Source: an uncultured virus (IMG/VR IMGVR_UViG_3300005683_000013)
Lineage: Duplodnaviria > Heunggongvirae > Uroviricota > Caudoviricetes
Direction: 5' to 3' (one strand)
Virus record (IMG/VR): IMGVR_UViG_3300005683_000013
DNA length: 64,000 bases
Numbering within the stretch: position 1 is the stretch's first letter; every line of letters starts with the position of its first letter. Below are positions 59,995-64,000 of this stretch, piece after piece. A model generated the notes under the pieces. That model was not told the DNA's origin. It did no database searches and worked only from the letters and a program-made list of their open reading frames with translations. The position numbers and the translations under genes were made by a program.

Positions 59995-60987
59995 TTAAAC
60001 GTTATGTTTTGTATACCCAACAAGTAAAAACGCATAAAACAATGATTCAACATCAAACGTTGTGATTCCCTCTTCGATCAACAATTTCATGAATTCAACT
60101 TTGTTTGCTGACGGTTTGTAGTTATCAACAATAAACTCAATTTTTGAAATTTGCGAAGCTGATAGCATCACGCTATCAAGATAAACTAACTGCCAGTTCC
60201 GTTTAATCAAATCTATTGATTCAAGTACCTTAGAATAAACGCCAGATTTTTTTTGGTTCACTGTACAATAATCAATCACTTCATCTATTAAAATGTCTCT
60301 TTCAGATCCAAACAATGGAATTCTTTTCACTAACGTTTTAAATCCAACGCCGTCAATTCCCGGTATGTTGTCTGAAACATCGCCACAAAATGCTTTTGCT
60401 AACGCAAAATTCTGTGGTGTGATCTTGTACTCTTTTATCACATCTTCTTTTTTGATGATTATCTTCTTATGAAGATTGTAAATTTCAATAGAATCATCAA
60501 GAAGTTGATAAAAATCCTTGTCTGACGAAACGATCAATTTTTTTGCTGCTGCAAATTTGCGTTTTGCTAAAAAAGCAATTACGTCGTCGCCTTCGCAATT
60601 TGGAACGTAAACCTGACAGACAGGCAACAATTTTAGTAATTTCGCCAAAGTTCTAATTTGTTGCGATTTATTTTCTTCCGTGTCGGGAATGTCATCTTCA
60701 TAAAAACGATTAAGTTTTTCAGGCTTTCGATTTGCCTTGTATTCTGAAAACAAAGACCGACGTCTAGATGAACCACCACTTTCCCATGCAACGTAAATTG
60801 CCTTAGGATGTGTGTCATTGATGACTTTGTGTAAAGTCTTTAAAAATCCAACGATTCCACCAACTTGGTATCCATGTGAAGACATCGCTGGAAATGCACA
60901 GTAAGACCTAATGAAAAGGTTAACTCAAAGCCCGTCGATAAGCAATATAGGACGCTTATCGACGGGCACCTCGTGATTCTCTGTCAT
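59995..60987 (-). CDS. 5'-3' exonuclease/RNase H (FEN family) with in-frame TGA at 60925-60927
   Basis: ILLIDGL*VNLFIRSY, YKANR, EGDD, SSDKD, GDVSDNIPGIDGVG. Confidence 0.85.
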
Positions 60988-61019
60988 TGAACCAATTTAC
61001 TTCAGATTATACTGATTGT

Positions 61020-62033
61020 TCAGAAAAAACTTCCAGGATCAGAAATGACGTAATCACCCGTCCCGGGCCTTATCATGATATTGTCAGAATGCAAATCATT
61101 CCAATTAAAATTGTGATTCTTGCTTAGGAATTGTAACGTTTTCATCAAGTCTTTCATTTGATCGTCTTCAACCACGGAGTCAAATGTTGTCATGTCATCT
61201 TGTGAAGACATTGGCATCACTAAACTATTCAAAGCGTTACTAATTTTGCCTTGAAAAGTTCCCTCTGCGTATTGCCATTCTTCTAGTGATACACTATTAG
61301 GCAGTTTTTTACCAAATTGTTGCATCGCAGTACGTATTTGTTGAACAAACTGATCAATTAATTTTGAGTATTGTTGAAACGATGAATCGTTTGAACCTGT
61401 AGTTGTTAGTGATTTCTCCATCGTCGATAATGACTTCACAACCATCTGATAAAGTTCAGTAAACATCTGTGGTTCTAGTTTAATTTTTGATTCTTTTAAC
61501 GAAAAAATCAACAGTTTTTTGAGTGAATCAGAACCATGAACAAATGATTTTAGTCTGTTTTTTATCATGTAAACGGTGTCAGACATCTCAACTGGTGACC
61601 ACAAACTCTGAGCAATACTCTTTGGTAATGGCAACAAATACTCCACAAGAACACAATCTTGATAAAACCCAACATCATCATATAATTCTTCTGTGATTTT
61701 ATAAAACTTATACACTGACAAAATGTTTTTAGCAAATTCTTTAGGAAGTTCTTCTTTAAATCCTTTTATCTTTTGATAAACTTCAACTTCATGTTCTGGA
61801 ATGAATTTTGCAACATATCTTTTTCCACTGATTTCGACTTCATATGCAACGGCGTTCGCTCCATTACCAAGTTTTGAGCCTTTCTTACCAGACGGAATTG
61901 GGTTTAAATTTTGATTGACAAGCCATTTTTCAAAAGGATCAGAAGATTTTGATGCCCATTTTTTTAAAACATCAGAATCTTCTCGTAGTGATTCTCGTAA
62001 AACTGTACGTAATTGTTTGACTGTCAATCTCAT
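61020..62033 (-). CDS. Protein kinase-like protein with shared leader
   Basis: LGNGANAVAY, VAK, DLHSDNIM, ISDP; starts MRLTVKQLRTVLRE. Confidence 0.75.
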   Translation of the reverse strand: MRLTVKQLRTVLRESLREDSDVLKKWASKSSDPFEKWLVNQNLNPIPSGKKGSKLGNGANAVAYEVEISGKRYVAKFIPEHEVEVYQKIKGFKEELPKEFAKNILSVYKFYKITEELYDDVGFYQDCVLVEYLLPLPKSIAQSLWSPVEMSDTVYMIKNRLKSFVHGSDSLKKLLIFSLKESKIKLEPQMFTELYQMVVKSLSTMEKSLTTTGSNDSSFQQYSKLIDQFVQQIRTAMQQFGKKLPNSVSLEEWQYAEGTFQGKISNALNSLVMPMSSQDDMTTFDSVVEDDQMKDLMKTLQFLSKNHNFNWNDLHSDNIMIRPGTGDYVISDPGSFF

Positions 62034-62092
62034 GCACTTAAATATCAATGTGCATGAACAACAAGCTCATGCACATTTGACAATCTTACGTC

Positions 62093-62599
62093 TTAGATTC
62101 CAGTGGAACCAAAACCGTTTGACCCTCGAGTTGATTCTGATGTTTCAGATACCTCAATCAGTTTTACGTTCAAATGAGCGCTTACTGTTGCTAAAGTGTA
62201 ATAACACACTAATTGTGCAATTCTAGAACCACGCTTGTACGAGATTGTAGAATCAGTGCTGTTATATAACACCACGATAATTTCACCTCTGTATCTAGGA
62301 TCTAAAATGCCGCCGACTGGAAATACGCCATTTGCTGCCATTCCAGAGCGACCTTCAATCTTCATAAAAGGAACGGCAGAAATCCTATTATCAATTATCA
62401 ACGGTTCTATGCTTTCAGCAAACATCAAACCGGTGCTAACTTTCGCTGTCTTTCCAGGCAACAGCGTCACATCTTCAACACAAGATAGGTCAAAGCCAAC
62501 ATCGCCAGCTGCTTGAATAGGCAGGACCGCGCTCTCGTGACACTTCTTCACCGGTATTAGAATATTACTGTACTTTAGCAAAACATTCCCTCCAATCAT
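62093..62599 (-). CDS. dut: dUTPase (trimeric)
   Basis: GFDL, GRSG, GILDPRYRGE, RIAQL, RGSNGFGSTG. Confidence 0.93.
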   Translation of the reverse strand: MIGGNVLLKYSNILIPVKKCHESAVLPIQAAGDVGFDLSCVEDVTLLPGKTAKVSTGLMFAESIEPLIIDNRISAVPFMKIEGRSGMAANGVFPVGGILDPRYRGEIIVVLYNSTDSTISYKRGSRIAQLVCYYTLATVSAHLNVKLIEVSETSESTRGSNGFGSTGI

Positions 62600-63540
62600 T
62601 CTGTGTCATCTCCTTCTTCACCTGAATCATTCAAGACTTCATCTTGTTCGCTCTTCGATGGAAGTTTGACATACGCAGCCTCCATCATGTCATCAACGTA
62701 TTTTCCTAAAACAGGATCCGAAATAATGTTGCCAAAATCCTTTTTTGAGAATTTCTTGCAAACGATAACGTTTCCTGAAGAATCAGTGACTGTCAAAGAT
62801 TTCCATGCGCCGCCGCCGTCAACCAATAACTTTTTTCCGTCTTTTTCAATTGGGCCATTTTTTTCACAATACATTCGTAACACATCATAAATTTCTTCAT
62901 GTTCAAAAATACCACGACCAAAATGAATTTGAAATTCAACTTTACGAAGAGGTGGAGCGACTTTGTTTTTCACTGTTTTAGCAGCGACATTGATGCCGAT
63001 AATGTCTCCGTCTTTGTTCTCAATTTTTGATCCACCAGTCAAAGCAAGTCGAACGCTAGCATGGAATGGAACGGCCATTCCCCCACTCGTGCATGTTGGG
63101 TCGCCGTACATTGTATTGTGTGACAAAATACCGTTTGAATAATAACAGTTTGATCCCTCGACCTCAATATCCAATATATCTGTTTTACTAGATGTCTTAG
63201 TAACTTTACCAGTTATCCACTTGTTCTCTTCTGACAAAAACAACAAATCTTGTTTGTCAACAGCTTCCATAGCAGGTAACCAATGTTCAATACCGTCTGA
63301 TTTAACATAAAATCGATGTAACCCAGAAACTACTAATGTCTTTCTATTAACAAGATCAACGTTATATGCAATACTTTCTTGTTTTCTAACGATTTTTAGA
63401 ATTTTCGACCAAACATTTACTTTGTTTGTAACGTCATATGCAAGTATCTCATACTTTAAATGACTAACATCAACAGGTGTATCATATTCTAATGTTTGAT
63501 ATGGAAAACCCATTTCTTCAAACAACTTTGAGATAATCAT
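62596..63540 (-). CDS. recA: RecA/UvsX C-part with long IntC (63115-63540)
   Basis: GILSHN/TMYGDPTCTSGGMAVPFHASVR, KNKVAPP. Confidence 0.9.
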   Translation of the reverse strand: MIISKLFEEMGFPYQTLEYDTPVDVSHLKYEILAYDVTNKVNVWSKILKIVRKQESIAYNVDLVNRKTLVVSGLHRFYVKSDGIEHWLPAMEAVDKQDLLFLSEENKWITGKVTKTSSKTDILDIEVEGSNCYYSNGILSHNTMYGDPTCTSGGMAVPFHASVRLALTGGSKIENKDGDIIGINVAAKTVKNKVAPPLRKVEFQIHFGRGIFEHEEIYDVLRMYCEKNGPIEKDGKKLLVDGGGAWKSLTVTDSSGNVIVCKKFSKKDFGNIISDPVLGKYVDDMMEAAYVKLPSKSEQDEVLNDSGEEGDDTE

Positions 63541-64000
63541 TAATTTTTTCCTTTGTAGAATTCATTATAACTTCAAATGATTCCTTGATATCTTTTTCCC
63601 AAATTACCAATCTGTGATAACCTAATTGTTTTGCTTTGTCACGTTTACAAAAATCTCTTCTAATAGATTTTCTTTGCCAGTCATTAATTGGCCCATTTAC
63701 ATAAACTGACGGATTACAATGCCAATAATCACCATGAACTTCTATTAAGATGTTAGTATTTTTAACATGAAAATCAAAATAAAAGCTATCTACCAGAAAT
63801 TGTCTTGTAATTTCAAACCCTTGATTTTCTAACCATTCACCAACTATACGTTCTGGTTTAGAAATTGTACACATATACGCGTTTGGCAATTTTGTATTTG
63901 GCGTTATTCCGTTTTTAATTAAAATTTCTTTTATTTGTTTCCATCCACGTTGTGTTATTTTTGCTATGTCTTTAATGTAAACGCCCTGTTGACCAAGTTC
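63518..64000 (-). CDS. Homing endonuclease, Vsr/DUF559-like, partial
   Basis: SKPE, FDFH, IEVHGDYWH, IWE; frame open to the window edge. Confidence 0.8.
   Translation of the reverse strand, partial: ELGQQGVYIKDIAKITQRGWKQIKEILIKNGITPNTKLPNAYMCTISKPERIVGEWLENQGFEITRQFLVDSFYFDFHVKNTNILIEVHGDYWHCNPSVYVNGPINDWQRKSIRRDFCKRDKAKQLGYHRLVIWEKDIKESFEVIMNSTKEKINDYLKVV

Follow-up and report, generated by a model that had tools for sequence, protein, structure and literature searches.

Translational bypassing has been documented at the bench essentially in T4 gene 60; the further cases are the mitochondrial byps, which are 27-55 nucleotides (nt) long, and a Streptomyces phage terminase. Of natural stop-hops, the part of a 2016 review that we could consult says that 'no occurences are known' (PMC5009743). 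Here we describe a gene that seems likely to depend on one. It encodes a FEN-type 5′-3′ exonuclease and lies on the minus strand of a 64,000-nt stretch of DNA from an uncultured virus of the Caudoviricetes (IMG/VR record IMGVR_UViG_3300005683_000013), the whole of which we call the window. An in-frame TGA divides the gene inside its first catalytic motif. The gene pattern and its conservation make it very probable that this FEN gene is expressed by programmed recoding, and a 6-nt stop-hop over UGA GUU is probably the mechanism that best suits the window FEN mRNA.

In T4 gene 60 the coding gap protects the MobA element from self-cleavage and avoids an insertion in the protein; the nuclease is often lost while the gap stays, and the cassette is called unique, all according to the portion of the 2022 preprint available to us (bioRxiv 10.1101/2022.08.31.505936). 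The accessible text of a second preprint proposes pairing of the exiting mRNA as the forward driver in gene 60 and places the 5′ stem-loop 9 nt upstream (bioRxiv 10.1101/2024.12.09.627546). As far as these sources describe that system, the FEN locus is like it in having its gap where a phage DNA enzyme has a highly conserved catalytic region, and in having a directly upstream homing endonuclease that is often degraded or lost while the gap is kept, with a patchy distribution that suggests repeated invasion. The details are different. The FEN gap is 6 nt and in frame rather than 50 nt, with no A-site or take-off stem-loop inside it, and the FEN hairpin abuts or overlaps the take-off codon instead of standing 9 nt away. 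FEN pairs the Leu codons CUU/CUN where gene 60 has Gly GGA, and the host gene encodes FEN rather than a topoisomerase. The endonuclease combines NUMOD3 with a Vsr-like domain, unlike the HNH endonuclease MobA, and the FEN gene is not divided into two open reading frames (ORFs) with added tails.

Three other systems invite comparison, each limited here to what the consulted parts of the sources say. In the synthetic stop-hops of E. coli (Weiss et al. 1987, as cited in PMC5009743) matched codons stand on either side of a stop, and 9 nt are read as one amino acid. The FEN site has the identical layout of take-off codon, stop, matched landing codon and in-frame resumption, but whereas the synthetic hops were of low efficiency and had no stimulators, the FEN site is natural and conserved, with a hairpin and often a Shine-Dalgarno-like motif. 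Phage phiHau3 resembles FEN in that the coding gap is short and lies in a phage gene, the A-site codon is hard to decode and a Shine-Dalgarno-like element lies 5′ of the gap. Its gap, however, lies out of frame and relies on a sense codon that is rare and linked to the host cell cycle, and the account available to us describes neither a hairpin abutting the take-off codon nor a link to an endonuclease. The byps of Magnusiomyces capitatus are likewise short mobile inserts that ribosomes skip, sometimes with take-off and landing codons that match imperfectly, but they are mitochondrial, are found at numerous places in each genome and are described as depending little on mRNA context (PMC5009743). 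Our literature search, with most subscription journals outside its coverage, found no description of a FEN stop-hop.

Read on the minus strand from the ATG at 60987-60985, the gene gives MTENHEVPVDKRPILLIDGL, then TGA, then VNLFIRSYCAFPAMSSHGYQ... in the same frame to a stop at 59997-59995. The match to the 5′-3′ exonuclease N-terminal domain (PF02739) spans the TGA, covering residues 14-187 with an E value of 2.1e-32 and 112.5 bits (cut-off 34.3), whereas the ORF starting at M35 scores only 99.7 bits. The C-terminal H3TH/SAM-fold domain (PF01367) matches with an E value of 1.4e-8 and 35.5 bits, under its 40-bit cut-off, and is listed in the precomputed annotation of close homologues. The stop divides the first acidic motif ([IV]-D-G/A..N..F.R), leaving LLIDG on its 5′ side and NLFIR on its 3′ side; the Asp of the I-D-G motif is a metal ligand in FEN enzymes. 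Because PF02739 aligns across the stop and scores above the M35 ORF, the 20 codons 5′ of the stop are, judging from this alignment, the true N-terminus of the enzyme, I-D-G included. Deleting TGA GTT from the window gene restores the family spacing D-G-L-N. The sequence-only reading of this stretch had claimed that the TGA stands in frame with the rest of a nuclease gene and that removing 6 nt yields a family-like sequence. The sequence and the PF02739 alignment confirm the first claim, and the recovered spacing, which matches that of uninterrupted homologues, bears out the second.

An in-frame TGA can be passed in several ways. CUU UGA after a G-rich stretch resembles the prfB shift site, which would fit an RF2-type +1 frameshift; a reassigned code or selenocysteine are explanations of the same general kind. 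The conserved protein continues in frame 0, however, not in +1. TAA and TAG serve equally at this position in relatives, and the genes of the window other than FEN are intact under translation table 11, which speaks against all three. In the case of selenocysteine, the bacterial selenocysteine insertion sequence lies 3′ of the stop, whereas the hairpin found here lies 5′. This group of explanations is already contradicted, and we give it next to no credence.

On the evidence of other contigs and of relatives, the stop is neither an assembly error nor a sporadic lesion. A contig identical to the window exists (L081), and the stretch was found in sequencing runs of 10 studies. Ten protein clusters at 94-99% identity are all called as proteins of 296 amino acids (aa) starting from M35, as a gene caller does when the stop is present. 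The site is also covered by contigs of four further runs from three studies (two RNA libraries), with no indel and with the hairpin and TGA unchanged, although, as contigs, these would not show rare (edited) forms, and presence in an RNA library is not proof of transcription. The nearest difference in them is a synonymous change at 60973. The alternative of a sporadic lesion, which the sequence-only reading had itself named, does not hold: relatives keep the stop at the same position, under purifying selection. As a side observation, run X18, a wastewater RNA library, contains a 671-nt contig over the FEN 5′ region (60700-60990) with a mean word depth of about 3000, while a sister run contains a 13-kb contig with a depth of about 24. 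The depth in X18 may be due to high expression or to a library rich in phage DNA.

Pooled searches gave 48 distinct stop-bearing phage FEN proteins, with the stop at this exact position, down to about 40% identity, and 147 distinct uninterrupted homologues for comparison. The D-x-x-N spacing is kept in all 147, and the stop-bearing genes thus carry exactly 6 nt extra. Protein-similarity retrieval, which does not presuppose a stop, found one in 4 of 157 loci (L081, L082, L158 and L159; another of the 157, L075, was too short to judge). Identity to the window FEN was 61% for L082, 44% for L158 and 42% for L159. In a second protein-based sample the stop was present in 1 of 79 readable loci (80 fetched; L288 unreadable), and 78 of these 79 nearest relatives of one stop-bearing gene were uninterrupted. 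The closest uninterrupted relative of the window FEN itself, P0011, is 79% identical to it.

Pattern scans of IMG/VR revealed a second major clade of stop-bearing FEN genes. A first, narrow scan gave one new relative (L163) and one chance match (L162). With a CTT take-off codon and an NTN landing codon fixed, 38 of 58 loci were FEN genes; with both unconstrained, 17 of 23 distinct segments were; and a scan for TAG gave 19 FEN genes among 42 loci. The non-FEN chance matches were without the hairpin. Against GenBank phages, blastn gave no match, and tblastn gave distant uninterrupted cultured relatives only, Microcystis phage Mel-JY01 (35-47%) and Flavobacterium immuto phages, so that no cultured phage carrying the cassette was found in the GenBank phage searches. 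In a collection of genome contigs, a protein-based scan found no relative, and a pattern scan found no FEN gene among the matches listed (at least 120 loci), which says nothing firm on prophages. We also note that in Bacillus phage G (gp690 and gp691) and Bacillus phage SPO1L4 the FEN homologue is annotated as two adjacent coding sequences or matched in two pieces.

All three stop codons occur at the site, TGA in 20 of the 48 genes, TAG in 16 and TAA in 12, and the conservation of a stop in homologues, proposed earlier as a check, is thereby established. Some close relatives are distinguished solely by the identity of the stop (TGA in L168, TAG in L341 and L377), which means that selection keeps the stop itself. 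The take-off codon was CTT in 43 genes, CTC in 3 and CTG in 2, never TTR, and the codon after the stop was CTN in 45, GTT in one (the window), ATC in one (L082) and CGA in one (L322), counts that are inflated by the two scans, the CTT/NTN-fixed scan and the TAG scan, that preset a CTT take-off and an NTN landing codon. In the unconstrained scan the take-off codon was still exclusively CTT, CTC or CTG. Among the 87 uninterrupted genes with Leu at the take-off position, 9 have CTT and 33 have TTA or TTG. The sequence of L082 runs ...LLIDGL TGA I N C F I R, and L158 and L159 have TAA followed by CTC. A longer hop of 12 nt to the next CUU had also been suggested for the window gene; this was discarded, as that CUU is absent in L082, L158 and L159.

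The codons around the stop also bear on the main rival of the hop, stop-codon readthrough, in which the stop would be decoded, perhaps with help from the upstream structure, and two extra residues (L-X-V/I/L-N) placed beside the catalytic Asp. The frame is unchanged across the stop, and the codon after it encodes an aliphatic residue in 47 of the 48 genes, which would fit a translated hydrophobic position, as would the conservative V to I change between the window and L082. However, the three stops are interchangeable, and no single suppressor tRNA or near-cognate route fits them all; UAA is the stop least prone to readthrough. No tRNA gene was found in the window. None of the 147 uninterrupted homologues has an insertion at this point, and L322 has Arg (CGA) after the stop. 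Readthrough leaves the matching codons around the stop (45 of 48) and the CTN-only take-off unexplained, and known stimulators of readthrough lie 3′ of the stop, whereas the structure here is 5′. We regard readthrough as unlikely, and the hop is favoured over it because the stops are interchangeable, the D-x-x-N spacing is invariant and Leu codons are matched on both sides.

The structure in question is a hairpin that ends on the proposed take-off codon. It was described in the sequence-only reading as a 14-bp (base pair) stem with a 10-nt loop, its 5′ arm in the variable N-terminus and its 3′ arm on the LIDG codons, and we found it to be so. The stem is perfect and finishes on the C of the CTT codon, which leaves 2 nt before the TGA. 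By itself the hairpin folds at -27.5 kcal/mol. Folding of a 131-nt context gave z = -3.06 against shuffles, with 1 of 200 shuffles as stable. Of the 48 stop-bearing genes, 42 have a contiguous stem of at least 8 bp whose end falls between -1 and +2, counted from the first base of the take-off codon, compared with 26 of the 147 uninterrupted genes and 120 of 1790 shuffles; in the other 6 stop-bearing genes the stem is interrupted by a mismatch. In stop-bearing genes the 64 nt up to the take-off codon have a mean minimum free energy of -25.7 kcal/mol, and in uninterrupted ones of -13.8 kcal/mol.

The hairpin also covaries in relatives, another check that had been called for. Fifteen genes share the layout of 14-bp stem and 10-nt loop, and in them 91.9% of cells are paired, against 19-53% in slid controls. 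Compensatory changes occur in 7 of the 14 pairs, and the covariation score was reached by none of 500 shuffles; this formal pair count was made on the 15-sequence subset of one architecture with anchored scripts, MAFFT having misaligned the 5′ arms of 32 segments (unequal loop lengths). Between the window and L082 there is a compensatory A:U to G:C change. L158 and L159 show more such changes, synonymous in the 3′ arm (GAC GGG to GAT GGT) and altering leader amino acids in the 5′ arm. G.U oppositions outnumber A.C by 42 to 5, a ratio somewhat flattered by a script that lets stems run on past G.U more readily than past mismatches. Because G.U pairs prevail over A.C, the pattern points to a hairpin acting as a sense-strand RNA structure rather than as DNA. 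We rejected an intrinsic terminator by inspection: only three U follow the stem, and the stem and loop are longer than usual.

Hairpins were also seen in genes without the stop. Uninterrupted genes with a strong hairpin whose 3′ arm is on the V/I-D-G codons are L055-L058, L063, L068, L073, L128, L130, L133, L152 and L153; L235, L266, L270, L273, L291, L296 and L297; and L282. In some uninterrupted hairpin genes (the L055 family) the codon phase of the 5′ arm is different. The uninterrupted hairpin genes lie close to stop-bearing clades on the tree, and they may be revertants without the six bases, forerunners, or genes in which the hairpin has its own role.

A Shine-Dalgarno-like GAGG precedes the window hairpin. 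With the hairpin extruded, it stands 6 unpaired nt from the landing codon, a placement that works only if the hairpin is extruded. The mini-Shine-Dalgarno sequence of gene 60 lies at an equal 6-nt distance from its landing codon, as given in the part of the preprint to hand (bioRxiv 10.1101/2024.12.09.627546). Of 42 stop-bearing genes, 22 have GGAG, GAGG or AGGA no more than 10 nt 5′ of the hairpin, compared with 2 of 26 uninterrupted genes with the hairpin and 6.6% of background gene-body windows. In the alignment of 15 sequences, G-A-G at columns 5-7 shows little or no variation, with Glu encoded there by GAG, not GAA. Where a lineage lacks the motif it is A+T-rich, and its hosts may make no use of Shine-Dalgarno-like sequences of this kind.

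The pattern of substitutions suggests that these genes remain functional with the stop in place. The ratio of nonsynonymous to synonymous substitution rates (dN/dS) was 0.05-0.23 in 8 pairs with the stop in both members; in 5 more pairs dS was saturated. An in-frame leader with a start codon 19-41 codons 5′ of the stop was present in all 32 genes examined (ATG in 30, TTG in 2). Between the window and L082 the leader codons R-P-I-L-L-I-D-G-L differ only synonymously, and the 13 codons between the stop and M35 are conserved at the protein level, with synonymous changes. The design that is conserved consists of a leader ORF, a covarying sense-strand hairpin with the L-I-D-G codons as its 3′ arm and its end on the take-off codon, a CUN Leu codon, any stop, usually another CUN, and an Asn codon with which the family sequence picks up again. 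To judge from these patterns, the stop-bearing gene stays functional, and its design is conserved and under purifying selection.

These observations weigh on two explanations that involve no passage through the stop. In the first there is no recoding at all: a 20-aa leader peptide ends at the stop, the enzyme is truncated (from M35) or inactive, and the hairpin and stop act in regulation or at the DNA level only, for instance in shielding the site against an endonuclease. Gene callers do annotate 296-aa products from M35 in the ten clusters, and the link to a homing endonuclease described below suggests a first role of the insert at the DNA level. But the leader encodes a conserved strand and the I-D-G Asp, with synonymous changes only between the window and L082, and the 13 codons up to M35 are conserved at the protein level. 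For 24 of the 48 genes, 24-131 codons separate the stop from the first in-frame ATG beyond it, so internal initiation would not be a general route; the landing codons are not start codons, and the body is under purifying selection. We consider this explanation improbable, more so than readthrough. In the second, the leader peptide (first strand and Asp) and the body would be made separately and then assembled, as in the split T4 topoisomerase subunits. Homing endonuclease insertions can indeed split genes whose products reassemble, according to the sections of the gene 60 preprint that we consulted (bioRxiv 10.1101/2022.08.31.505936). Here, though, there is no start codon or ribosome-binding site for a second chain at or near the landing codon, the matched Leu codons would be unexplained, and a peptide of 20-42 aa seems unlikely to give a buried strand in trans. 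A two-chain enzyme is thus very unlikely.

The sequence-only reading had proposed a programmed stop-hop from CUU to GUU, or readthrough. The conserved stop, the covarying hairpin and purifying selection support that proposal, and of its two forms the hop is favoured. It might proceed as follows. The ribosome would stall with peptidyl-tRNA-Leu on CUU and the stop in the A site. During the stall the G+C-rich base of the hairpin would be unpaired, with its 3′ strand in the E site and mRNA exit path. A tRNA with a GAG anticodon holds CUU by a wobble pair only. Zipping of the last base pairs would then draw the mRNA about 6 nt through the ribosome, and the peptidyl-tRNA-Leu would leave CUU and re-pair with the next codon (CUN). 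Decoding would resume at AAC (Asn) to give ...LLIDGL-NLFIR..., which has the spacing of the uninterrupted homologues. The finished hairpin would lie 5 nt behind the new P site with no drive left, which would fix the length of the hop at 6 nt. Its completion would also put the GAGG motif 6 unpaired nt from the landing codon. The model takes up the proposal made for gene 60 that pairing of mRNA on the exit side acts as the driver. In the clade of the window and L082, hairpin and Shine-Dalgarno-like motif may matter more for landing, or hopping may be less efficient there.

The stop is scattered among relatives. On a FastTree phylogeny of 179 distinct proteins it needs at least 14 state changes, on a tree with many weakly supported forks. 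The closest pair that differs in the stop is L333 (stop) and L285 (no stop). From about 60 nt downstream of the site onward these are about 85-95% identical, while their leaders are about 55% identical and their upstream sequences unrelated. In L285 recA abuts FEN, whereas L333 has an inserted ORF of 316 aa upstream of FEN. Inserted ORFs of 310-346 aa, on the same strand in the recA-FEN interval, are found in L222, L312, L311, L324, L175, L333, L214 and L218. They are mutually homologous and form one family (BLASTP 1e-21 to 1e-153), carry NUMOD3 and a nuclease domain like Vsr/REase_MTES_1575, and match homing endonuclease PHROGs.

This family is associated with the stop. A match to its hidden Markov model within 1300 nt upstream was found for 18 of the 48 stop-bearing genes, all on the FEN strand, and for 9 of the 147 uninterrupted genes (Fisher 6e-7); full-length copies were found for 8 of 48 and 0 of 147 respectively (8e-6), though the rows are related and both Fisher values overstate independence. 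Ten more stop-bearing genes have remnants. Remnants are found in the recA-FEN gaps of L307 and L308, and within a single lineage with the stop, L324 and L175 have the endonuclease while L304 has none. Because of this link to a homing endonuclease, the insert may have arisen as self-protection of a mobile element, as the distribution suggests. A cassette of leader, hairpin and gap would have spread together with a NUMOD3 and Vsr-like homing endonuclease gene that inserts immediately upstream of FEN. With the 6 extra bases, the element would shield its own copy of a conserved ...GAY GGN CTN AAY... target, and the hop would do this without residues added beside the catalytic Asp. The window phage would then have retained the gap while the endonuclease gene is not at its FEN locus.

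Two side observations concern other endonuclease-like neighbours of uninterrupted genes. L295 has an uninterrupted FEN (start near 1491) with D-S-T-N instead of D-G-L-N, and directly upstream (467-1333) a different endonuclease-like ORF with three NUMOD3 repeats (E 1.9e-34); D-S-T-N may be another way to alter the same target site. DUF7487 proteins lie directly upstream of uninterrupted FEN genes (L064:2016-2927, L119:2043-2933) and are similar over a short stretch to the endonuclease family's nuclease domain (BLASTP 1e-4 to 5e-10).

Several points weigh against the hop and the origin proposed for it, in addition to the preset codons of two scans, the contig-level nature of the run comparison and the relatedness of the rows noted above. 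The landing codons of the window (GUU) and L082 (AUC) are not Leu codons, and only 2 of 3 positions would re-pair with the tRNA-Leu that reads CUU; in L322 the codon is CGA. Nor is the hairpin confined to stop-bearing genes, as the 26 of 147 uninterrupted genes with a strong hairpin at the same place demonstrate, and it may have another or an older role. A stimulatory hairpin overlapping the take-off codon is, to our knowledge, without precedent, and the zipping model is something we infer. Finally, 30 of the 48 stop-bearing genes, the window's among them, are without a trace of the endonuclease, and the nine uninterrupted controls with matches have partial ones.

The features of the window locus are collected in Table 1. 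Its replication module has the order RecA (intein), dUTPase, a 342-aa ORF, FEN and DnaB, while L082 has dUTPase, a 151-nt gap and FEN. No endonuclease adjoining FEN was found in the window, where the upstream ORF is weakly kinase-like. This 342-aa ORF is without a Pfam match and has a weak PHROG match to a T7-like protein kinase (E 2e-4); by eye it has kinase-like motifs (a G-rich loop, VAK, HSDN and DPG). We rejected the idea that it is a degraded homing endonuclease, as it has no BLASTP similarity to the endonuclease family. A homologue of that family's nuclease domain does occur elsewhere in the module: a 123-aa ORF beside RecA matches the upstream ORFs of L218, L333, L214 and others (BLASTP 1e-8 to 3e-15) as well as homing endonuclease PHROGs. 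The RecA gene, in a region that extends to the end of the window at 64000, appears to be interrupted, which would make this a second selfish element in the same replication module.

Table 1. Coordinates of the FEN gene, its proposed recoding signals and neighbouring features in the window.
Feature	Position	Strand	Remarks
FEN / 5′-3′ exonuclease gene	59995..60987	minus	single gene across the in-frame TGA; 330 codon positions plus terminal stop
ATG start codon of the 20-codon leader (first strand and catalytic Asp, ..LLIDG)	60985..60987	minus	
Shine-Dalgarno-like GAGG	60969..60972	minus	1 nt 5′ of the hairpin
Hairpin 5′ arm, GCCCGTCGATAAGC	60954..60967	minus	in variable N-terminal codons V-P-V-D-K
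Hairpin loop, 10 nt	60944..60953	minus	three synonymous differences from L082
Hairpin 3′ arm, GCTTATCGACGGGC	60930..60943	minus	L-I-D-G codons and first base of the take-off codon
Proposed take-off codon CTT (Leu20)	60928..60930	minus	
In-frame TGA stop	60925..60927	minus	TGA, TAA or TAG at the same position in relatives
Proposed landing codon GTT	60922..60924	minus	would be skipped in the product under the hop
Resume codon AAC (60921-60919) and enzyme body (NLFIRSY... to C-terminus)	59998..60921	minus	
342-aa ORF directly upstream of FEN	61020..62048	minus	between dUTPase and FEN; absent there in L082
RecA ORF	62596..63540	minus	weak PF14890 intein C-terminal splicing region (...SHN) and RecA C-terminal part (PF00154 194-261)
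123-aa Vsr-like homing endonuclease ORF	63518..63889	minus	next to the intein-bearing RecA gene; homologue of the endonuclease family's nuclease domain

Taken as a whole, the comparison inclines us, by a modest measure, to see in these FEN genes the first natural and widespread stop-hop, with a 6-nt gap whose length is set by a hairpin, and which would be mobile together with a NUMOD3 and Vsr-like endonuclease that targets the DNA of a catalytic motif, persisting after the endonuclease is lost. Leader, hairpin and gap together make up a short cassette of about 60 nt. Dozens of natural versions of it exist; among them are three stops, several pairs of take-off and landing codons, varied hairpins, and forms with or without the Shine-Dalgarno-like motif. 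If the reading is correct, it would offer a compact natural system for sliding driven by mRNA refolding, for the setting of hop length and for the weight of codon re-pairing. It also has a consequence for annotation, in that gene callers shorten these genes (296 aa instead of about 328), so that nucleases that are probably active are mis-called. The link to the endonuclease suggests a general evolutionary route in which selfish elements create recoding sites. If this is true and general, host genes would be shielded by hopped micro-gaps, and bypassing would be common in phages and not a curiosity of T4.

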